Source: an uncultured virus (IMG/VR IMGVR_UViG_3300042356_000546)
Taxonomy: Duplodnaviria > Heunggongvirae > Uroviricota > Caudoviricetes
Length of the DNA stretch: 64,000 bases
Virus record (IMG/VR): IMGVR_UViG_3300042356_000546
Strand: one strand, 5' to 3'
The notes beneath the pieces were generated by a model. It saw nothing but the letters and a program-made list of their open reading frames with translations, did no database searches and was not told the origin of the DNA. The position numbers and the translations under genes are program-made. Shown in pieces: positions 20,008-40,844 of this stretch (within the stretch, counting starts at the first letter, position 1; each line of letters begins with the position of its first letter).

Positions 20008-20112
20008 GAGATATTTATAGTGCTATTTGGACACAGTGATAATTCATGGCAGCTCGAAGAGCTGCGGAGCAGCGCAAAATTTGCAAGGTTATCTAGAACC
20101 ATAAATACTCAC

Positions 20113-21854: not shown

Positions 21855-21932
<78 letters not shown>

Positions 21933-21951
21933 AACATTAATAGTACAGCAG

Positions 21952-22028
21952 CAGTCCTTAGCTCAGTTGGATAGAGCAACAGCCTTCTAAGCTGTAGGCC
22001 ACTGGTTCGAATCCAGTAGGACTGGCCA
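21952..22028 (+). tRNA. tRNA-Arg (TCT)
   Basis: CAGTCCT/AGGACTG acceptor stem, ACAGC-CTTCTAA-GCTGT, TTCGAAT, CCA. Confidence 0.95.
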
Positions 22029-22054
22029 ACAACGTTGCAGCAGCATCGAGACTG

Positions 22055-22139
22055 AGGACCGTGGTGAAATAGGTAGACACAAGAGACTTAAAATCTCTCG
22101 CAGCAATGCATACCGGTTCGATTCCGGTCGGTCCTACCA
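22055..22139 (+). tRNA. tRNA-Leu (TAA)
   Basis: AGGACCG/CGGTCCT acceptor stem, AGAGA-CTTAAAA-TCTCT, long variable arm, CCA. Confidence 0.95.
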
Positions 22140-22725: not shown

Positions 22726-22783
22726 TTGACTGATTGGGCTAATGGCGCTATAATAGACACATACACACACAAAGGAGCGAAAG

Positions 22784-23839: not shown

Positions 23840-23897
23840 CGGGTTGAGCGAAAGCTGCTATAATAGACACTTAACTTAACAATATTGGAGCGATACA

Positions 23898-24365: not shown

Positions 24366-24446
24366 ATGCCACAGCACAACTAGGGGTTGACGAAACCCCT
24401 AGAGTGCGCTATAATAGACACATACACTAACACACAGGAGCGAAAA

Positions 24447-25502
24447 ATGGCTACACTAGTTGAGATTACAGAAGGTGCTTACGGTGCCCGTAAGAATTTG
24501 ATCACCCCAGGCATCCGCTTGCAAATGGTCAAGGACTTTGACGGCGAGGCAATTACTTGCCTTGCAGGCGATGAGATTGAAGGTGGTCGCAACCCCTACA
24601 AGAAGATCCGCGTCAAGGTCTCTGGCATTAATGCATACCGCGTGGTCGCGCACATTGACGAGGCTCCTGTAGGAGAGAACAGTTTGGTACAGCTCAAGGT
24701 GGCTGACTCGGCTGTAGCACATATCACAGATGACGAGCTGATCGAAAAGACTCGTGCTCGCTTCCAAGTACTTACAGACATGACTAAGGCTGTGAAAGCA
24801 GGCGATGTACGTGCTATGATTGTGACAGGTCCCCCAGGTGTAGGCAAATCGTTTGGTGTTGAAGAAGTGTTGACTAAGGACGACTTGTTCAATACCTTAG
24901 GCGAGCGCAAGCCACGCTACGAGATTGTCAAAGGTGCTATGAGTGCCATTGGCTTGTATTCTAAGCTCTACGAGTTCTCAAGTGAGAAGAATGTTATTGT
25001 GTTTGATGACTGCGACTCAGTGTTGCTGGACGACTTGAGCCTGAACATTCTTAAGGCGGCTTTGGACAGTTCTAAGAAGCGTACTATCAGCTGGAACACT
25101 GACAGCCGTATCCTGCGAAGCGAAGGCATCCCAGATCGCTTCGAGTTCAAGGCTGGTGCGATCTTTATCACCAACATCAAGTTTGAGAATGTACGCTCTA
25201 AGAAGCTACAGGATCACCTTGCCGCTCTTGAGAGCCGTTGCCACTACATTGATCTGCAGATGGATACAGATCGTGAGAAGGTCCTGCGTATCAAGCAGAT
25301 CGTTGCAGACGGCATGCTGGACGAATACGAGCTGAGCGATGTGGCCAAGATTGATGTTGTGGACTTTGTGTCTAACAACCGTGCTAAACTACGCGAGCTG
25401 AGCCTGCGTACGGTGTTGAAGGTTGCACAATTGCGCAAGGCGTTTGCTGACAACTGGGAAGCAATGGCAGAGGTCACTGTTATGAAGCGAGGTGTTGCGT
25501 GA
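24447..25502 (+). CDS. AAA-type P-loop ATPase
   Basis: Walker A GPPGVGKS, Walker B VIVFDDCD; start follows GGAGCGAA. Confidence 0.85.
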   Translation: MATLVEITEGAYGARKNLITPGIRLQMVKDFDGEAITCLAGDEIEGGRNPYKKIRVKVSGINAYRVVAHIDEAPVGENSLVQLKVADSAVAHITDDELIEKTRARFQVLTDMTKAVKAGDVRAMIVTGPPGVGKSFGVEEVLTKDDLFNTLGERKPRYEIVKGAMSAIGLYSKLYEFSSEKNVIVFDDCDSVLLDDLSLNILKAALDSSKKRTISWNTDSRILRSEGIPDRFEFKAGAIFITNIKFENVRSKKLQDHLAALESRCHYIDLQMDTDREKVLRIKQIVADGMLDEYELSDVAKIDVVDFVSNNRAKLRELSLRTVLKVAQLRKAFADNWEAMAEVTVMKRGVA

Positions 25503-25913: not shown

Positions 25914-26003
25914 TTTGGCGAAATTGACCATTGCTCTTGATCATGGATGTCTGTATACTTGTATGACGCTGTTAGGAAACAGCCACAACAAAGGAAACTT
26001 AAA

Positions 26004-26276
26004 ATGAAGAGATTCAATCCAAAAACCAAGACTTTCAAAGTCTTCACAGCACTTTACAATGGTAAAGCACTTACTCCAGCACAGGCCAAGCATGACCTAG
26101 GTGTTGGCAACCTGGCAGCAGAAGCCAGCCGCATTCGTCAAGCAGGCTACGCTGTTTATACCAACAGCCGTACAGCAGGCAACGGTGTTCAGGTAACTGA
26201 ATATGTGATGGGCAAGCCATCACGTGAGATCGTTGCTCTAGGCTACAAAGCTCAAGCAATGGGCATCACTCTTTAA
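26004..26276 (+). CDS. Winged helix-turn-helix DNA-binding protein (putative)
   Basis: LTPAQAKHDLGVGNLAAEASRIRQAGYAVY; AAGGAA RBS. Confidence 0.6.
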   Translation: MKRFNPKTKTFKVFTALYNGKALTPAQAKHDLGVGNLAAEASRIRQAGYAVYTNSRTAGNGVQVTEYVMGKPSREIVALGYKAQAMGITL

Positions 26277-26290
26277 TTAGGGTTTCAAAT

Positions 26291-26353
26291 AGACAAGCCG
26301 ATTCGCTCCCGGGGCGTCTTTTGAGGGTGTTGTAGAAATACAACACCTTTTTT
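26291..26353 (+). terminator. 3'-UTR hairpin (loop ATTCGCTCC) followed by an intrinsic terminator
   Basis: CCG-ATTCGCTCC-CGG, then GGTGTTGTA-GAAA-TACAACACC and a T-run. Confidence 0.75.
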
Positions 26354-26433
26354 CTTTGACCGGCACTCCAGTTGGTTGACACTTTGGGCGACTGATGCTA
26401 TAATAGATATATACTGAAACAACGGAGCGAACA

Positions 26434-27069
26434 ATGTTTACAGCAGATCAAGTTTGGGGATTGGCGGTAGCAGCAGATCGTATCAACGGAGGCTACTTCA
26501 AAGAAGATGTCTACGTGCTGGAGAACGACTGCCAGAAGCGAGTCACCCAGGCCAACAAGCTAATGGTCAAGCAATGGCTCCGCGAGGGTGCATTCACCGA
26601 AGCCACAGCAGAGGACGTTGAGAAGGGTCGTGCGGTTCGCAACTACTTCAATGGCTTCTTGCTGAAACAGATCTCGGGCAAGATCAACGACTTCGAACAG
26701 CAGGCACTCCGCATTGCACAGATGGATGAGTTCACTGGCCGTAACATGTTGGAGTTTGCCATCGTAAGCTGCTTGCCTGGTGTGATGCTGCGCGATCAAA
26801 TCCGTAACGAGTTGGCTCGCGAAGTCCGTGCTTCTACTCAATTGCAGGGCGCTGTGGGTGACAAGATCCAGGGCGAGATCGAGGTGGTCAAGTGCTACTA
26901 CAGCAAAGACTATGACAAGTTCAGGGTTACTGCTAAACTGGTTGACAGTTTCGTGGATTTCTGGTATAATAGTAACTTAGAAGCAGGGCAGAAGTTAACT
27001 ATCAAAGCAAAGATTAAAAGTGTTCGTAGCGATAATACAACACAATTAAACTTCGTAAAAAGAGCTTGA
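26434..27069 (+). CDS. Early protein, C-terminus resembling an OB fold
   Basis: Promoter 26376, GGAGCGAA RBS; ends TTQLNFVK. Confidence 0.7.
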   Translation: MFTADQVWGLAVAADRINGGYFKEDVYVLENDCQKRVTQANKLMVKQWLREGAFTEATAEDVEKGRAVRNYFNGFLLKQISGKINDFEQQALRIAQMDEFTGRNMLEFAIVSCLPGVMLRDQIRNELAREVRASTQLQGAVGDKIQGEIEVVKCYYSKDYDKFRVTAKLVDSFVDFWYNSNLEAGQKLTIKAKIKSVRSDNTTQLNFVKRA

Positions 27070-27142
27070 CAACTGAGCTGTTCGGTGTTATACTATTAAC
27101 ACTGAGAAAGCAACTTTAACTGAGAAAGAAAGAGGTCTTATT

Positions 27143-28228
27143 ATGGCAAAGTCAACAGACATTAGCGTTCGACAAGTTGGTCCCAAGAACGCAAAGAAAT
27201 CAATTCGTTTTGCAATCAAGAAACGCCGCCCTGTGTTCCTTTGGGGCCCTCCAGGTATTGGTAAGAGTGACATCGTTAAGCAGATCGGCGAAGACGCTGG
27301 TCGCGAAGTTATCGACGTTCGCCTGGCCCTGTGGGAGCCTACAGACATTAAGGGTATCCCCTATTACAATGCAGACAAGGGCACAATGGTTTGGGCTCCC
27401 CCTGCAGAGCTTCCTACCAACCCAGAGTCAACTGCGATCATCTTCTTAGATGAATTGAACAGTGCTCCTCCAGCGGTACAGGCCGCGGCCTATCAGTTGA
27501 TCCTTAACCGTCGTGTTGGTACTTACGAATTGCCTAAGGGTGTTGACGTGGTTGCCGCTGGTAACAGAGAAGGCGATCGTGGCGTGACATATCGTATGCC
27601 TGCTCCGCTGGCTAACCGTTTCATTCACTTGGAAGCAAAGGTAGATTTTGATGACTTCCAAGAGTGGGCTGTTATGAATGACGTTCACCCTGAGGTGTTG
27701 GGTTATGTGGGTTTCGCCAAGCAGGACTTATACGACTTCGATCCTAAGTCGCCCAGCAAGGCCTTTGCAACTCCACGCTCGTGGGTGTTTGTGAGCGACT
27801 TGCTCAAGGACGAGGACTGCGACGTTGACACCATGCACAATTTGGTTGCGGGTGCCGTAGGTGATGGCCTGGCTATTAAGTTTATGGCTCACCGTAAGAT
27901 TGCAGGTCGCTTGCCTAAGGCGTTGGACATCTTGGAAGGCAAGGTCAAGGACCTGCAGATTAAGGAAGTGTCAGCCATGTACTCTTTGACTGTGAGCCTG
28001 TGCTATGAACTTAAGGATCAAGCAGAGAAGAAGTCTAAAGGTTGGGATGCTATGGCAGACTGCTTCTTCCGCTACATGATGGATAACTTCCCAACAGAGT
28101 TGGTGGTGATGGGTGCTAAGACGGGCTTGACAAATTACAACTTGCCCTTTGACGCTACAAAGATGAAGAGCTTTGACGAGTTCCACAAGCGTTTTGGCAA
28201 GTATGTTTTGAGTGCAATGGAGAATTAA
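27143..28228 (+). CDS. MoxR/dynein-related AAA+ ATPase
   Basis: GPPGIGKS, IFLDELN, AAGNR, PLANRF, TPRSW. Confidence 0.9.
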   Translation: MAKSTDISVRQVGPKNAKKSIRFAIKKRRPVFLWGPPGIGKSDIVKQIGEDAGREVIDVRLALWEPTDIKGIPYYNADKGTMVWAPPAELPTNPESTAIIFLDELNSAPPAVQAAAYQLILNRRVGTYELPKGVDVVAAGNREGDRGVTYRMPAPLANRFIHLEAKVDFDDFQEWAVMNDVHPEVLGYVGFAKQDLYDFDPKSPSKAFATPRSWVFVSDLLKDEDCDVDTMHNLVAGAVGDGLAIKFMAHRKIAGRLPKALDILEGKVKDLQIKEVSAMYSLTVSLCYELKDQAEKKSKGWDAMADCFFRYMMDNFPTELVVMGAKTGLTNYNLPFDATKMKSFDEFHKRFGKYVLSAMEN

Positions 28229-28245
28229 GACCTCGCCCATTGCAA

Positions 28246-28284
28246 GGGCGGGAGGCTTCTCAGGGCTTGCCCGCCCACTTTTTT
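28246..28284 (+). terminator. Intrinsic terminator
   Basis: GGGCGGG...CCCGCCC stem followed by a T-run. Confidence 0.6.
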
Positions 28285-28340
28285 GGTTGACAGGTGTGTA
28301 AATAGATGCTATAATATACACATACTAAGGAGAGCGACTA

Positions 28341-29555
28341 ATGGCATTTGATCCGATTATCGATAAACTAACCACAGCCCGTGTGGGACTGTTGCTTAAG
28401 GCACCATTCTTTGGCAACATGGCAACTCGTATGCAACTGATTCAAGCAGACGAATGGTGCCCTACTGCGGCAACTAATGGCCGTAATTTCTATTACAATA
28501 CTAAGTTCGTTGAGAAGCTCTCAGTCAAGAAACTAGAGTTCCTATTCGGACACGAGATTTGCCATTGTGTGTTTGACCACTTTGGTCGTGTAGGTTCACG
28601 CGATCGCCAGCTGTCTAACATTGCACAAGACTACGCTGTCAATCAGATCCTTGTAGACGAACGCATTGGTGAGAAGATCACTGAAGTCAAGATCTGCTAC
28701 GATGCCAAGTATCGCGGCAAAGCCTGGGAAGAGATCTACGACGAGCTATACGAGAAGGCAGAGAAGATCTCTATGCCACAACTGCTTCAGCAACTTGGTG
28801 ACCTGTTGGACGAGCACATTAACGAAGACGGCAATGCACCGGGCAAAGAGGGTGATGGAGACAAGCAGGGCAAGGGTATGCCTGGCATGACTAAAGAAGA
28901 AGCACAGAAGATCCGCGATGAGATCAAAGAAGCCATGGTGCAGAGTGCCGCGGCAGCAGGTGCAGGCAAAGTGCCCGCAGGCATCCAGCGTTTGATCAAG
29001 GACATGACTGAGCCTAAGATTAGCTGGCGTGATCTTGTGCGTCAAGAGATACAGAGCATTATCCGCAACGACTATTCCTTTACTCGTCCTAACCGTAAGA
29101 GTATGCACTCAGGTGCCATACTGCCGGGCATGAAAGAAGCAACTACAATTGACATTGGTATTTCAATTGATATGTCAGGTAGCATTGGACAAGAGGATGC
29201 AACTGTATTCCTGTCAGAGGTCAAGGGCATTGTTGATCAGTATGAGGACTTTAAGATTAACCTGTGGTGCTTTGACACAGAGATCTATAACCACAAAGAG
29301 TTCTCGCAGGACAATAGTGAAGAGCTATTTGAGTATGAGCCACAGGGCGGTGGCGGTACTGACTTTGCTGTGAACTGGGAGTTTATGGAAGAGAATGGTA
29401 TTCGTCCTAAGAAGTTCATTATGTTCACAGACGGCTACCCCTGCGGTAGTTGGGGTGACGAGGACTACTGCGACACAATCTTTATTGTCAAAGGCAATAC
29501 AGAAGCAGAAGCACCCTTTGGTCAGACTGTTATCTACGAGAAAGAGACTGCCTAA
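28341..29555 (+). CDS. DUF2201-type metallopeptidase plus VWA domain protein
   Basis: HEICH (HExxH), DMSGS (MIDAS), GGGGTDF, FTDGY; adjacent to the AAA+ gene. Confidence 0.88.
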   Translation: MAFDPIIDKLTTARVGLLLKAPFFGNMATRMQLIQADEWCPTAATNGRNFYYNTKFVEKLSVKKLEFLFGHEICHCVFDHFGRVGSRDRQLSNIAQDYAVNQILVDERIGEKITEVKICYDAKYRGKAWEEIYDELYEKAEKISMPQLLQQLGDLLDEHINEDGNAPGKEGDGDKQGKGMPGMTKEEAQKIRDEIKEAMVQSAAAAGAGKVPAGIQRLIKDMTEPKISWRDLVRQEIQSIIRNDYSFTRPNRKSMHSGAILPGMKEATTIDIGISIDMSGSIGQEDATVFLSEVKGIVDQYEDFKINLWCFDTEIYNHKEFSQDNSEELFEYEPQGGGGTDFAVNWEFMEENGIRPKKFIMFTDGYPCGSWGDEDYCDTIFIVKGNTEAEAPFGQTVIYEKETA

Positions 29556-29693
29556 TTGGAGTGCCGGCAGTGTGGCAAAAAAGCCACACTGCTAGTAGGC
29601 CCCGCTGCTTACGTGTGCATGTAATCTAGGGGTTGACGGTTTGGTAGATTGATTGTATAATATAGACTTACACACACAGAAAGGTTGATAGAT

Positions 29694-29819
29694 ATGATGA
29701 GTCACTTAGCAGCATTTATCGCTGGTATTATTGTTGCCACTGTTGGCTTCACAGGCATTGCACAGATCGCCGACAAGGGCGTGAACAAGGTGCAAGAAGT
29801 TGTGAGGGATGTCAAATGA
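29694..29819 (+). CDS. Small membrane peptide (41 aa)
   Basis: Promoter 29633; MMSHLAAFIAGIIVATVGFTGIAQIADKG... Confidence 0.6.
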   Translation: MMSHLAAFIAGIIVATVGFTGIAQIADKGVNKVQEVVRDVK

Positions 29820-29995
29820 GCAAGATGGCAGACCTAGCATATGATGTTGAGCAACTGTATATCGAAGGCCACAGTGCCAAGATGATTGCAGACCTGTTGG
29901 ATTGCCCTGTCGAGCAGGTGCTTGGCTACATACAAGACATGGGCGTACAAGACGCTCCTGAAGACTACAGTCCCTTCGTATCCATGAACAGTTGA
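29816..29995 (+). CDS. Small early protein (59 aa), HTH-like
   Basis: MSKMADLAYDVEQLYIEGHSAKMIADLLDCPVEQV... Confidence 0.6.
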   Translation: MSKMADLAYDVEQLYIEGHSAKMIADLLDCPVEQVLGYIQDMGVQDAPEDYSPFVSMNS

Positions 29996-29996
29996 C

Positions 29997-30263
29997 ATGT
30001 ACCTACACATCCTGCCAGAAGACGAACAGAAACAGTTGATCCGTGCTCTGCGTGGACCCCAATTTGTTCGTGAGCGCCACGGTAGTCTCTATGATCGTGG
30101 GTCATCAGATTCATACTACGGTCGACAGATAGACCCTCACCACGGTGGAGTTGGTGGCGACTCGGGGCCACGGGTTGAGGTCACAGATGCAGACAGCATT
30201 GCGGAGTACCTCGCAGGCTACGATTGGAATGAAACTCACGGCGGCAAAAAGGACTACGGTTAA
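29997..30263 (+). CDS. Early hypothetical protein
   Basis: HGSLYDRGSSDSYYGR. Confidence 0.7.
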   Translation: MYLHILPEDEQKQLIRALRGPQFVRERHGSLYDRGSSDSYYGRQIDPHHGGVGGDSGPRVEVTDADSIAEYLAGYDWNETHGGKKDYG

Positions 30264-30499
30264 TGGGTTGGATAGTATACGAAGAGAAGTCGGGTCATAT
30301 GCAGAAGTATTACAAATTGGCTTCGACAGCCAAACGGATCTGCACTCAGCACAACACTGAGCGGGACTATGATTTCTATGTGTATCGCCCAGACCGAAAG
30401 TGGGCCTTCTGTTCATACAGGGACTACGAAGGCGTCCTAATGGGCCTGCGTGGAGAGCAATTAAAGATGTGGCAATTCTGCAACACTGAAATTGGTTGA
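30263..30499 (+). CDS. Early hypothetical protein
   Basis: TAATG overlap; stop codon lies in the next -35 box. Confidence 0.6.
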   Translation: MGWIVYEEKSGHMQKYYKLASTAKRICTQHNTERDYDFYVYRPDRKWAFCSYRDYEGVLMGLRGEQLKMWQFCNTEIG

Positions 30500-30556
30500 C
30501 ACTTTGAGCAATCCCTGCTATAATATACACATACACTAGCAAACAAGGAGCGAAAC

Positions 30557-30865
30557 TTGAAACTTTTAATCACTACACAGGTCTACGAGAACTACGGTGC
30601 CCACGATTGGGACGGAGTTGGTGAGTGCCCACAGTACTGGAAAGCCAAGGGCGGTTCAGACTACGTGGTCAAGAACATCAACATCAACAAGGTCACGGAG
30701 ACTGTGATGGGTGTGCGTGGTCAGATTGAGCAGGACAATGATGCCTTCCGCGAGACCATTATTGATTGGTCTATCGTGGCTGATGATGCTCTCACAGAGT
30801 TCGAGCAGAGCCAGTTGAACTACGAAGGTCACATCCGTTACGCTTCTAAAGAGATTGCCTGGTAA
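30557..30865 (+). CDS. Conserved early protein (ENYGAHDWDG..CPQYWK)
   Basis: Promoter 30496, GGAGCGAA RBS, TTG start. Confidence 0.75.
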   Translation: MKLLITTQVYENYGAHDWDGVGECPQYWKAKGGSDYVVKNININKVTETVMGVRGQIEQDNDAFRETIIDWSIVADDALTEFEQSQLNYEGHIRYASKEIAW

Positions 30866-30929
30866 TTGGTTGACAGTTTGGGCTTTTGATCGTATAATAT
30901 ACATATACTGAAACACAAAGGAGCGCGAA

Positions 30930-31136
30930 ATGGCATTCATCACCCTGGGCAAGAGAGACGAAAAGTGGCAACCACGCAAGGGGCTGGAAGGACCGTTTTG
31001 GTTCGTTGATCGGGTCTTGTATTACGATCCAAAGGCAGGCCAGTACTGGGATCCAACCACCGACTTCTATGTAGAGAACGCAGAAGTGGATCGCTTGCAG
31101 AACCGCTTGATGGAAGTTATGAGGGCTGGGGTATGA
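30930..31136 (+). CDS. Early hypothetical protein (GLEGPF...YYDPK)
   Basis: Promoter 30870 and RBS. Confidence 0.7.
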   Translation: MAFITLGKRDEKWQPRKGLEGPFWFVDRVLYYDPKAGQYWDPTTDFYVENAEVDRLQNRLMEVMRAGV

Positions 31137-31486
31137 GATACATTTTGGCAGCGTGGGACTCCACCGGCTTTGAAACCCTGCAGGACATCACCCACTTTCA
31201 TCCTGAGAACTTTGAAAAGGGTCAGTTGATTGAGATCCTCAGTGGCCGTAGAAAGACTGAGAATCCGTTGGGTCGACAGATTTCAATGATGAAGTTGAGG
31301 GCACAGGCCAATAGTCAACGAACCTATGAAATCTACATGTTCACCACCCTGGACGACATTGAGTTTAAGGATGTAGAAGATTGGATGATCGGCGATCCGC
31401 AGAGTTTGGTAGACTGGGTTAGAAAGAATCATGCTGTAAAGATCTACAGTGATTATGTCCCTAATCACCGTAGGGCTATTGTTTAA
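31133..31486 (+). CDS. Early hypothetical protein
   Basis: ATGA overlap. Confidence 0.65.
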   Translation: MRYILAAWDSTGFETLQDITHFHPENFEKGQLIEILSGRRKTENPLGRQISMMKLRAQANSQRTYEIYMFTTLDDIEFKDVEDWMIGDPQSLVDWVRKNHAVKIYSDYVPNHRRAIV

Positions 31487-31546
31487 ATTGGTTGACAGTT
31501 TGGCAGTTTGGCGCTATAATAAACACATACACACAAAGGAGCGAAG

Positions 31547-31840
31547 ATGAAGTTTACACAAACAGATTGGACAGAGGCAAACGGCACTAGCCTGCAGGGA
31601 TATGTAACCGCTTACTACCATGAACTGGTAGAAGTGTTTGGCCAGCCCGAAGGCGGCGGCGACAAGACCACAGTGGAGTGGTGTTTGGAATTTGAAGATG
31701 GCACAGTGGCCACAATATACGATTGGAAAGAATACGAAACCCCAATGGGCCAGTATCGTTGGCACATCGGTGGCAAGAGCAAGCAAGCAGTTCATGCAGT
31801 AACTTCAACTTTCAAGGATCATCAATATGACACACATTGA
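31547..31840 (+). CDS. Early hypothetical protein (GTSLQGY...ATIYDWK)
   Basis: Promoter 31492 and GGAGCGAA RBS. Confidence 0.75.
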   Translation: MKFTQTDWTEANGTSLQGYVTAYYHELVEVFGQPEGGGDKTTVEWCLEFEDGTVATIYDWKEYETPMGQYRWHIGGKSKQAVHAVTSTFKDHQYDTH

Positions 31841-32009
31841 ACGATTGGCTAACGAGATTGCAGTGCTGAGTAATGACAGCCTCTCTAAGTTGGCTGCTGA
31901 GTTGGTTAAAGAGTATCCTACTCGTGCAACTACATTTGAGTTCAGTCTTAGCGTTGAGATCCAGGACGCTACGATTACGCAAGACCCCTGGAAATTTGTT
32001 AATCTTTAA
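31827..32009 (+). CDS. Early hypothetical protein
   Basis: Overlaps the previous gene. Confidence 0.5.
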   Translation: MTHIERLANEIAVLSNDSLSKLAAELVKEYPTRATTFEFSLSVEIQDATITQDPWKFVNL

Positions 32010-32018
32010 GGAGCCGAC

Positions 32019-32633
32019 ATGCCAAATTGGTGCAACAACACACTGACACTCACCCACGAAGACCCAGCAATGATCCTTCGTGCTAAAGAAGCACTTGATC
32101 GTGGAGAGTTCCTCAATGAGTTCATTCCGGTGCCAACGGATCTGCAGATCGTTGCAGGATCGTTAGGTGACGGTGACGAGCAGAAAGAATTGGAACGCAA
32201 GACTGCTGAGAATCGCGAGAAGTATGGTTACGGCAACTGGTATGACTTCTGCGTAGGTGAATGGGGCACCAAGTGGGATGTAGGTGGCGATGGTCAGAGT
32301 GATATCCACCCTGATGGTAAGATGCTACACACATCGTTCGACTCAGCGTGGAGCCCTCCAGTCGCTGCCTATGACAAGTTGGTGGAGTTGGGCTTTGGTG
32401 TCAACGCCATGTATTACGAAGGTGGTATGGCCTATGCTGGCGCCTATGATGAGCATGGTGATCAAGAGATCAATCTCGAAGGCATGAGTGCCGACGACAT
32501 TGAGCGTGATCATCCTGAACTGGACGAAGCATTTGCTATCTCAGAAAGCATTCGTGAATACGAAGCAGAGCAAGAGGAAGAGCTTACTGAGTGGATTAAG
32601 GATGGCGTTGCAGCCAATGAGGGAACAAAATGA
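32019..32633 (+). CDS. DUF1281/YubB ferredoxin-like domain protein
   Basis: MPNWCNN, WYDFC..WGTKWD, FDSAWSPP. Confidence 0.75.
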   Translation: MPNWCNNTLTLTHEDPAMILRAKEALDRGEFLNEFIPVPTDLQIVAGSLGDGDEQKELERKTAENREKYGYGNWYDFCVGEWGTKWDVGGDGQSDIHPDGKMLHTSFDSAWSPPVAAYDKLVELGFGVNAMYYEGGMAYAGAYDEHGDQEINLEGMSADDIERDHPELDEAFAISESIREYEAEQEEELTEWIKDGVAANEGTK

Positions 32634-32824
32634 CAAGGAAATATGAATTTAAATTCACAATCGAGTGTGCCAGCGATGGCAGACCCGATATGGATCGAGT
32701 CGAACACATGATCGACTTGAACATGCAGGATCTGGTCTTTGACGATGAGTTCATCGCCGCCTTAGACGAGAAGGAAAGCGTCAGTATTCAAGTTGTTCCG
32801 CAATTTGGTAAACCAAACAGTTGA
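32630..32824 (+). CDS. Early hypothetical protein
   Basis: ATGA overlap. Confidence 0.55.
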   Translation: MTRKYEFKFTIECASDGRPDMDRVEHMIDLNMQDLVFDDEFIAALDEKESVSIQVVPQFGKPNS

Positions 32825-32904
32825 CCAATTCGAATATTGATGCTATACTAATAACATGCTGAATTGGTTGGCATGATTTTTACACACACAGAAGGAAGTT
32901 AAAA

Positions 32905-33210
32905 ATGAGTACCGATAAGAAATTTGCAGTAGCAGGTGTTTCAACCCTCGAAGGCAAGACCAAATTGCGCTTCGCTAACGATACCATGCGTATCAAGATC
33001 CTGGCAAAGAACGGCCACACTGACGTTGAGTTGGTTGAGCTGCCAGTAGAGATGACTAAGGCAGAAGCTGTACAGCACCTTAAGTCTATCCAGTTCGGCA
33101 TAGGCAATGCTGCTATCCAAGCTGCTGTTGCCTATGCAGAGAAGAAAAACCCAGCCCCCCGGGCTGCGGTCAAAGCCCCTGTCGCGAAGACAGCGGCTGT
33201 TGTTGCCTAA
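32905..33210 (+). CDS. Conserved small basic protein with Ala/Lys-rich tail
   Basis: FAVAGVS...RFAND...KILAKNGHTD; AAGGAA RBS. Confidence 0.75.
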   Translation: MSTDKKFAVAGVSTLEGKTKLRFANDTMRIKILAKNGHTDVELVELPVEMTKAEAVQHLKSIQFGIGNAAIQAAVAYAEKKNPAPRAAVKAPVAKTAAVVA

Positions 33211-33280
33211 TACCGATTCGCTCCCGGTATAGAGGCAACTTTGGCATAACCCTGCTAGGTGTAGGGTTATGCTTTTTTTT
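33210..33280 (+). terminator. 3'-UTR hairpin (loop ATTCGCTCC) followed by an intrinsic terminator
   Basis: ATACCG-ATTCGCTCC-CGGTAT, then GCATAACCCT...AGGGTTATGC and T8. Confidence 0.8.
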
Positions 33281-33340
33281 GGTTGACAATTTGGACGTTG
33301 TGCGTTATAATTACAGCTTACACACACAAAAGGACACACA

Positions 33341-33815: not shown

Positions 33816-33907
33816 CACTACAGCGCATAGGGTTATTGCGCACACACTTGACATTTTGGACAAGGTGTGCTATAATACATTTTTAAACAGCATTAGGAGC
33901 GAATACT

Positions 33908-37805: not shown

Positions 37806-37877
37806 ATAACTAGGTTGACAACTAGCCAAATTAGTTGTATAATAGACACATACAAACAAACATTAGGAGCGAACCCA

Positions 37878-38876: not shown

Positions 38877-38996
38877 TAGGGGTTGCCAAAGTGTCAGCCT
38901 ACCACTAGACCCTGCAACACGCCTGGGCACTTCGTAGGTTGACACCGAGGCTTTTTGGCAGTATAATTGACACATACACACAAACAGGAGCGAGTA

Positions 38997-39981: not shown

Positions 39982-40153
39982 GGTGGAGGGGTCATGGTGG
40001 GGGGTCGGGGTATACATGCACAGTGTTGCGTATATACAACACTAGGGGTAGCAAATCACCACCATGAAACGATAAGTACTCCACCCTAATTTTTTACGCG
40101 ACCAATTTTTTCCCATCTTGTAACCTTTTTCTACACTAACCACAATACCTACT

Positions 40154-40709: not shown

Positions 40710-40844
40710 ATGAGCACAGTTCCACACTTCTATGACGATGATGAGGATGATGATTATGACGACTACGATGAGGATGATGATTATGACGACTACGATGAGG
40801 ATGATGAAGAAGATGATGAGGACTACGATGATGAGGATGACTAG
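40710..40844 (+). CDS. Hyper-acidic microprotein (44 aa) with an internal 27-bp tandem repeat
   Basis: AGGGAG RBS; MSTVPHFYDDDEDDDYDDYDEDDDYDDYDEDDEEDDEDYDDEDD*. Confidence 0.6.
   Translation: MSTVPHFYDDDEDDDYDDYDEDDDYDDYDEDDEEDDEDYDDEDD

Follow-up and report, generated by a model that had tools for sequence, protein, structure and literature searches.

A 64,000-nt stretch of DNA (hereafter the window), which is part of one 353,123-bp virus record (IMG/VR IMGVR_UViG_3300042356_000546; 41% G+C, no N), was found to carry two RNA hairpins in the 3' untranslated regions (UTRs) of early genes. Both present a 9-nt loop that is the complement of an extended Shine-Dalgarno (SD) sequence shared by many early genes of the same phage. 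These anti-SD hairpins are conserved in related phages, their stems covary, and in a sister lineage loop and SD have changed together. Pairing in vivo, a repressive effect on translation and the balance between action in cis and in trans are what we infer from this anatomy, conservation, covariation, complementarity and joint change.

Two Hairpins With a Common Loop Precede the Terminators of the Early Block

The 15-mer CCGATTCGCTCCCGG was present on the + strand at 26298-26312 and 33213-33227. An earlier note on this DNA, made from the letters alone, had reported both copies; they proved to be the only ones in the genome, and allowing two mismatches added none in the window (0.02 expected in shuffled sequences). 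Each copy folded as a CCG/CGG stem around the unpaired 9-nt loop AUUCGCUCC, with different outer stems, and each lay between a stop codon (26274-26276 and 33208-33210) and an intrinsic terminator, an arrangement claimed in the same note and borne out by position and fold. Anti-SD hairpin 1 (26285-26324, + strand) consisted of an outer stem, a 3 × 3 internal loop (AAG/GGC), the CCG/CGG stem and the loop. Anti-SD hairpin 2 (33210-33230, + strand) had a UACCG/CGGUA stem under the same loop; its 6-bp stem appeared in the minimum-free-energy as well as the centroid structure and began within the stop codon of the gene at 32905.

The early block occupied 21-40 kb on the + strand. Between 21 and 40.5 kb, 26 promoters matched TTGACA-17-TATAAT at 11-12 of 12 positions (20 perfectly) and were followed by short CA-rich leaders. 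Only two strong + strand intrinsic terminators were detected in the same interval, with stems at 26323-26350 and 33243-33273, and both stood directly behind the anti-SD hairpins. Terminator T1 (26323-26356, + strand) combined a 12-bp stem with a T run, and terminator T2 (33243-33281, + strand) a 13-bp stem with T8. The anti-SD hairpins of the window had no U tract of their own and so fell outside the definition of an intrinsic terminator; the separate terminators followed 11-16 nt 3'.

The Loop Complements a Private Shine-Dalgarno Sequence of Early Genes

The loop AUUCGCUCC is the Watson-Crick complement of GGAGCGA(AU), the SD extension of promoter-proximal early genes. The octamer GGAGCGAA occurred nine times in the window (0.83 expected; none of 100 shuffles reached nine). 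Seven copies lay on the + strand, 1-4 nt 5' of a start codon, and the other two were the complements of the loops. The seven SDs were located at 22774-22781 (57-aa gene), 24437-24444 (ATPase gene), 26424-26431 (211-aa gene, the first after T1), 30547-30554 (102-aa gene with a TTG start), 31538-31545 (97-aa gene), 33896-33904 (125-aa gene), where the longer form GGAGCGAAU matched the loop at 9/9 positions, and 37866-37873 (127-aa gene). GGAGCGA was found at 23887-23893 (155-aa gene) and 38987-38993, and a partial site, GGAGCG, at 30920-30925 (68-aa gene), all on the + strand. All of these positions had been listed in the earlier note and were recovered. The window held at least ten matching SDs in all, and those at 33896, 37866 and 38987 lay 3' of the last hairpin. 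Among 37 listed + strand gene starts, GGAGCGA preceded nine, GGAGCG one and GGAGC three, and these genes were the first behind promoters.

This placement was consistent beyond the window. Twelve of the 15 genomic copies of GGAGCGAA were at SD or loop positions and three within coding sequence; none was free in intergenic DNA. Relatives were sampled as 80 loci (662 kb) around homologues of the winged helix-turn-helix (wHTH) protein encoded next to hairpin 1; these loci are on related contigs and are not independent. In this set, all 217 gene-strand copies of GGAGCGAA preceded a start codon with an open reading frame (ORF) of at least 40 aa, and GGAGCGA followed by C, G or T preceded a start codon in 82 of 89 cases. 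On the opposite strand, 62 of 69 GGAGCGAA copies had no start codon after them and were mostly complements of hairpin loops. Five large related contigs each carried 8-14 such SDs behind TATAAT or TATACT, together with 2-3 hairpins in the same orientation as the SDs. Across 417 unique promoter-proximal GGAGC sites, the next positions were G (84%), A (73%) and A (66%).

In a rough genome-wide set of 379 ORFs, 155 had an AGGA-, GGAG- or GAGG-type core and 205 had none; the top upstream hexamers in this set were AGGAGA, AAAGGA and AAGGAG. Because the remaining genes use AAGGAG-type sites or none, the host anti-SD is probably ordinary and can pair with no more of the early SD than its GGAG. An unusual 16S tail in the host appears unlikely, given the AAGGAG-type sites of other genes and the two different extensions used by two sister lineages. 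These results supported the proposal of the earlier note that the loop complements a private SD extension which 16S pairing does not explain.

Loop and Shine-Dalgarno Sequence Have Changed Together

The earlier note had named tracking of the SD consensus by the loop in relatives as a check of its proposal. This check was run and gave two matched pairs, GGAGCGA/UCGCUCC in one lineage and GAGGGCA/UGCCCUC in the other. The second pair was exemplified by a complete relative of 357,559 bp (G011), whose wHTH protein was 80% identical to that of the window. Neither a GGAGCGA SD nor a AUUCGCUCC hairpin was found in the stretches of this genome that were inspected. Its early cassettes carried a GAGGGCA(A) SD at seven promoter-proximal genes, and four tandem hairpins with (U)GCCCUC loops stood directly behind its early ATPase gene, the last of them being a terminator (fold z-score -5.7). 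UGCCCUC is the complement of GAGGGCA; the two SD heptamers differ at four positions, and all four differences are compensated in the loops.

The association was quantified in 80 of the at least 583 relatives of the early ATPase by counting motifs in the 230 nt after the ATPase stop codon. These counts replaced a loop-context counter (stems of at least 3) that was too permissive and reported more 'loops' on the opposite strand. Among 44 loci with a GGAGCGA SD (class A), TCGCTCC was present in 19 (35 copies), GCCCTC in none, and neither motif in 25; in those 25, other genes come after the ATPase gene, as in the window. All eight loci with a GAGGGCA or AAGGGCA SD (class B) had GCCCTC (18 copies) and none had TCGCTCC. 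The 28 loci with other SDs included five with TCGCTCC, none with GCCCTC and 23 with neither. SD class and loop class agreed in 27/27 informative loci. No third SD/loop class was found in 14 further loci.

The wHTH-anchored set gave a similar linkage: hairpin and matching SD occurred together in 63 of the 80 loci, where the hairpin followed the wHTH gene, neither was present in ten, the SD alone in seven and the hairpin alone in none. The seven loci with only the SD comprised five with the variant loop UAGUCGCUCC, one in which the contig ends at the gene and one with unrelated sequence. Predicted duplex energies were -13.3 and -14.2 kcal/mol for the two cognate loop/SD pairs, -6.1 and -5.4 kcal/mol for the cross pairs, and -7.9 and -6.3 kcal/mol for the early SDs of the two classes with the 16S tail.

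Conservation of an RNA Structure

The exact 15-mer was present in at least 123 viral-contig loci of IMG/VR. This count is no proof by itself, since a rough estimate predicts chance matches to a 15-mer in so large a collection; context was decisive. In most of the matches listed, the motif formed the apex of a longer hairpin with stems that differed between contigs. About a dozen GC-rich matches (e.g., L011, L014, L035, L043, L058, L062, L063, and L071) look like chance, and about ten were leaders in sense orientation. In relatives the hairpin was often the terminator itself, with the form stem-UAAAU-CCGAUUCGCUCCCGG-stem'-U run. Homologues of hairpin 2 followed the same gene in five loci (L010, L025, L042, L081, and L104), again with other outer stems.

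A flanking helix of at least 7 bp was present in 90 of 133 unique sites, vs. 26% when left and right flanks were re-partnered. A count of enclosing pairs was abandoned because it failed to distinguish real flanks from shuffled ones. In an RNAalifold alignment of 61 copies behind the wHTH gene, six of nine predicted pairs showed compensatory changes, with one single pair occurring as CG (25), AU (24), GC (5), GU (3), and UG (2). The inner stem also varied (CCG/CGG, CG/CG, CUG/CAG, GUG/CAC, and GCG/CGC) in loci that had been fetched through their proteins and were free of pattern bias; in a locus fetched by pattern (L003), the same loop was closed by CCUAGG/CCUAGG. Of 72 scored hairpins, 60 had the loop ATTCGCTCC; such a conserved, unpaired seed with several complementary targets is expected of small RNAs (sRNAs) that derive from 3'UTRs and act in trans. 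At 70 of 89 sites the fold of the transcribed strand was better than that of its complement, and the enclosing helices contained 125 G-U pairs on the transcribed strand vs. 45 on the complement. This strand asymmetry points to RNA as the relevant form, not duplex DNA.

Known RNA families did not account for the element. No family of Rfam 15 matched; the best overlaps, rnk_pseudo (22.6 bits, gathering score 55) and HepC_CRE (18.3 bits, gathering score 140), were far below threshold. A tRNA T-arm or a CRISPR repeat, considered for tandem copies spaced 43-78 nt apart, was rejected, since the loop is no T-loop and the copies form arrays of hairpins behind a single gene.

Two further sequence features were observed around the 15-mer. 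Its exact reverse complement, CCGGGAGCGAAUCGG, serves in sense orientation as a leader that stands 0-3 nt 5' of ATG, behind TAAATAC-type boxes. Such leaders were found in this genome outside the window, at 299795 (+) and 309318 (other strand) in window orientation, and in the relatives L026, L028, L029, L040, L049, L050, and L110. In them the same CCG/CGG stem closes a loop that contains the SD, which makes a perfect kissing partner for the 3' hairpins; the genes behind them in this genome encode a membrane protein of 93 aa and a secreted protein of 160 aa, the latter appearing CsgF-like by eye. In six loci (L160, L174, L079, L024, L001, and L117), an unstructured (A/G)(C/U)CGCUCC word was present 15-20 nt 5' of the hairpin, right after the wHTH stop codon; it is a possible second anti-SD site.

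Carrier Genes and the Early ATPase Operon

The gene in front of hairpin 1 (26004-26276, + strand) encodes a 90-aa winged-helix protein (Pfam HTH_39, E 5.9e-8) with 141 relatives in viral contigs and no tblastn match in 50,697 phage records. Its promoter (25931-25959, + strand) reads TTGCTC-17-TATACT; a TTGACC first taken as -35 box lies 7 bases too far upstream, and TTGCTC (25931-25936) fits TATACT at 17 nt. The gene in front of hairpin 2 (32905-33210, + strand) encodes a 101-aa protein without a match in family searches, and is preceded by TTGACC-17-TATACT (32821-32849, + strand). The SDs of these carrier genes, AAAGGAAA (25990-25997, + strand) and GAAGGAAG (within the signal region 32821-32897, + strand), showed a predicted pairing with the loop of -2.6 and -2.7 kcal/mol, respectively; a separate calculation for the wHTH SD gave -2.3 kcal/mol. 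Both carriers share a common build of TATACT, 5'UTR stem-loop, AAGGAA-type SD, short ORF, anti-SD hairpin and terminator. The 5'UTR stem-loops (25968-25983, GCUGUU-AGGA-AACAGC, and 32855-32875, both + strand) directly follow the -10 box; that of the wHTH gene covaries in relatives (GCUGUU/AACAGC, GCUGAU/AUCAGC, and GCUGUG/CACAGC) and is probably a 5'-end stabiliser.

The different SD and the TATACT box of the carriers had been described in the earlier note, correctly, with the proposal that both genes would thereby escape repression. This proposal stood only in part. None of the 80 wHTH homologues had GGAGCGA as its SD, which agrees with escape, but the ATPase gene that carries hairpins in relatives has a matching SD, and no terminator separates either carrier of the window from GGAGCGAA-led genes upstream, so that co-transcription is possible.

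The gene most often followed by hairpins was the early AAA+ ATPase gene (290-350 aa, 59-70% identity among lineages), a homologue of T4 NrdC.10. This gene is the last of a series of early cassettes in many relatives, where two hairpins in a row, the second being the terminator, close the series. Within the window, two small ORFs, the wHTH gene, hairpin 1 and T1 come after the ATPase gene (24447-25502, + strand; SD at 24437). No + strand terminator was present from the ATPase promoter (24387) to T1, so the ATPase operon still has hairpin 1 at its 3' end. A second unit, to which the GGAGCGAA-led gene at 31547 belongs, is closed by hairpin 2. It is proposed that the element began as the tail of an NrdC.10-like ATPase operon, able to pair with the SD of that gene. 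In the PA5oct group, which contains the best cultured relatives of the ATPase (46% identity), neither SD nor hairpin was found in the 12.8 kb inspected.

Genome and Transcript Context

The genome was estimated to be 98% complete (CheckV). No megablast match to a cultured relative was found among 50,697 phage records, and similarity to cultured phages was limited to short, distant matches to PA5oct-like, CBB and Vibrio giant phages. The window differed from the copy in the genome record at 15 positions, the first ten listed falling within 128-343; the remainder, including all features described here, was identical.

Three tRNA genes (21855-22136, + strand; Rfam tRNA, 55-71 bits) were located just 5' of the early block. 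Within it, genes for a MoxR-like AAA ATPase (AAA_5/AAA_3) and a DUF2201 metallopeptidase/VWA-like protein followed each other at 27143-29555 (+ strand), a pair also kept in PA5oct-like and CBB phages. A G-rich box, GGTGGGGGGTCGGGGTATACA, at 39985-40020 marks the end of the block and may be a promoter of another class; similar boxes (GGTCGGGGTATA...) occur directly 3' of hairpin-terminators in many relatives. A 44-aa ORF at 40710-40844 (+ strand), composed nearly entirely of Asp, Glu and Tyr (DDDEDDDYDDYDEDDD...), is a candidate protein of the DNA-mimic type. Genome-wide, no hexamer was more enriched immediately 5' of start codons than TAAATA (36 genes). It stood 4-8 nt 5' of ATG in some 45 genes, for example at 20017 (-), 34895 (+), and 42061 (+), and resembles a late-type promoter box whose position would yield leaderless mRNAs.

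Parts of the region were present in 24 RNA runs labelled freshwater or lake water, the best share being 0.25 of sampled words. These metatranscriptome matches are contigs, mostly 90-95% alike, which show no transcript ends, strands or levels. One such contig (26281-26571) bridges T1 and may represent read-through or DNA carry-over.

Proposed Mechanism

The anti-SD hairpins may be the active parts of RNAs which, at protected mRNA 3' ends, occlude matching early SDs, with pairing in trans as the main mode in this phage; the chance that this account is right is put at about even. Host RNA polymerase would transcribe the early block from the ca. 26 sigma-70-type promoters. RNAs that end at T1 or T2, whether whole mRNAs or 3' fragments of 60-75 nt, would keep the hairpin and the terminator at their 3' end as protection against nucleases. 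The exposed loop could then pair with 7-9 nt of matching SDs (predicted at ca. -13 kcal/mol, vs. ca. -8 for the 16S tail) and shut out 30S subunits, by which early translation would be throttled or ended. Genes with AAGGA-type SDs, such as the two carriers, and later genes with canonical SDs or leaderless mRNAs would remain untouched. Cis pairing is a possible ancestral mode that may still operate.

Action in trans, which the earlier note had proposed, was taken as the main mode because the address is common to many early units, three of which lack a downstream hairpin: after the SDs at 33896, 37866 and 38987, neither hairpin nor terminator was found before the block ends near 40 kb. The absence of a matching SD from all 80 wHTH genes, the separate promoters of the carriers nearest to the hairpins and the arrays of 2-4 loops in relatives also favour trans. 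A broader reading, to which slightly less than an even chance was given, is that these giant lake phages use a private ribosome-binding code, in which one temporal class of genes would be addressed by a 7-9-nt SD extension not read by the ribosome, stable terminator-borne hairpin RNAs would read this address in trans and switch the class off, and sister lineages would have re-coded both sides.

Several observations weigh against these proposals. Two hairpins face at least ten matching SDs, so titration in trans needs carriers that are far more abundant or stable than their targets. The class-B loci are each other's closest relatives and form one clade, so that the A/B switch amounts to about one evolutionary event, albeit one that moved dozens of SDs and several loops together. 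At SD position 8, G and C were equally frequent (31 vs. 31), which gives no sign of selection for a duplex longer than 7 nt. Concerted evolution of a promoter-leader cassette, and not regulation, could be what maintains the shared SD. Lastly, the matching SD of the ATPase carrier gene in relatives, and a loop that in L278, L287 and L283 fits the initiation region of the ATPase gene better than those of its neighbours, fit pairing in cis.

Alternative Explanations

If pairing occurred in cis only, as in icaR, the 3' hairpin would bind the SD on its own transcript, above all in the ATPase operon, and limit its own translation, while other early genes would share the SD only through a homogenised cassette. 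This explanation is unlikely but deserves serious weight. The hairpins of relatives lie directly 3' of an ATPase gene with a matching SD, and the window has no terminator to separate the ATPase promoter from T1. The loop of L287 complements some 14 nt of the ATPase gene's own initiation region while its neighbours use GGAGCAGAU; in L278 the ATPase gene alone has GGAGCGA, and the ATPase SD is the best match in L283. Pairing of a 3'UTR with its own SD also has an experimentally shown precedent in icaR (PMC3868564). However, when own SDs were ranked by duplex energy, a noisy measure with many false starts among the 'others' that was used for L278, L283 and L287 only, ranks ran from 1/21 to 22/29 and were poor in many loci (e.g., 19/23 and 22/29). 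In the window, the two carriers nearest to the hairpins have their own promoters and no matching SD, leaving a match on the same mRNA possible at the level of the operon, where no terminator intervenes. Moreover, three matching SDs lie beyond the last hairpin, and arrays of 2-4 loops exceed the need of one cis site.

It is improbable that the hairpins serve to bind a protein, as a boxB-like accessory to termination, antitermination or 3'-end stability, or as spacers that keep ribosomes off the terminator. An intrinsic terminator always adjoins or contains them, hairpins recognised by proteins typically combine a constant loop with a variable stem, and a terminator too near a stop codon is reported to work poorly (PMC4824070). 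Such functions leave unexplained the exact complementarity of loop and early SD and the joint change in lineage B.

Real pairing with a protective or activating outcome, in which the hairpin would shield early SDs from a RegB-like nuclease or RNase E, or store messages, was given only a small chance. The complementarity and covariation data apply to it equally, and class-specific SD extensions are known as nuclease addresses from T4 RegB (PMC3014915). Yet an SD held in 7-9 bp cannot bind a 30S subunit and would still be silenced while paired; in addition, no match to the RegB family (PF10715) was found in the 98%-complete genome, a weak search given that control genomes yielded none either.

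A DNA-level site, at which a phage protein such as the wHTH protein would recognise the GGAGCGAA duplex, whichever way it is turned, both at early leaders and beside the two terminators, is very unlikely: a duplex reads alike both ways, from which complementarity and joint change would follow, the wHTH gene adjoins hairpin 1 and the 15-mer also occurs in sense as a leader, but the framing stems covary, which is relevant in single strands only, G-U pairs are enriched on the transcribed strand, GGAGCGAA keeps SD-type spacing to start codons and is never free in intergenic DNA, and an asymmetric word of 7-8 bp is short for an operator.

Relation to Known Systems and Implications

The c4 antisense RNA of phages P1 and P7, reportedly described by Citron and Schuster in 1990, offers a parallel. 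Exposed loops of c4 pair with the ribosome-binding region of a phage message, and where the loops of P1 and P7 differ, their targets differ correspondingly. Similarly, loop AUUCGCUCC faces SD GGAGCGAAU here and UGCCCUC faces GAGGGCA in lineage B, matched between related phages. Whereas c4 controls one operon (icd-ant) in a temperate phage, the element described here would address a whole early class in a giant phage of lytic type, and it is located at the 3' end. The Rfam C4 model (RF01695) gave no match at gathering score in the window and none at E values up to 10 around either hairpin.

In S. aureus, C-rich hairpin loops of RNAIII and the Rsa sRNAs pair in trans with the SDs of several mRNAs. 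Those loops present a generic UCCC to ordinary SDs of host genes. The present loop, in contrast, would recognise the private bases (CGA or GGCA) that extend past the core paired by 16S, and would thus be specific to the phage's own early class. In icaR-type pairing the duplex is cut by RNase III. There, a C-rich motif in the 3'UTR of the Staphylococcus aureus icaR mRNA pairs with the SD and blocks initiation (PMC3868564). The element is in both cases part of an mRNA 3' end and not a separate sRNA gene. icaR acts on itself, through a generic UCCCCUG; here the sequence is the loop of a dedicated hairpin or terminator, often in arrays of 2-4, the private 7-9-nt SD is common to many early genes, and the nearest carriers in the window have no matching SD.

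In T4, RegB cleaves the GGAG of early SDs, where the consensus extends further 3' (PMC3014915). RegB/S1 and the present system share a class-specific SD that marks early messages for post-transcriptional shut-off; RegB is a protein nuclease, whereas the reader of the address here appears to be an RNA loop.

Full-text literature searches, whose coverage left out most subscription journals, yielded no description of such a phage element, and the sequence strings themselves matched nothing but primers and siRNAs. Early shut-off in phages is known to rely on proteins (T4 RegB and RegA) or on antisense RNAs of single operons (P1 c4 and P22 sar). In the present case, a device made of RNA alone appears to target an entire class of early genes through a private SD extension, and it is spread over many uncultured freshwater phage contigs, its ATPase carrier gene having at least 583 relatives. 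The element also indicates that the loops of terminators, commonly regarded as free sequence, may carry regulatory information. If the proposed pairing is true, the SD/loop pairs of the sister lineages are natural, mutually orthogonal pairs for translation control; with a weak predicted cross-pairing of -5 to -6 kcal/mol, vs. -13 to -14 kcal/mol for cognate pairs, the two could serve as orthogonal translation switches.

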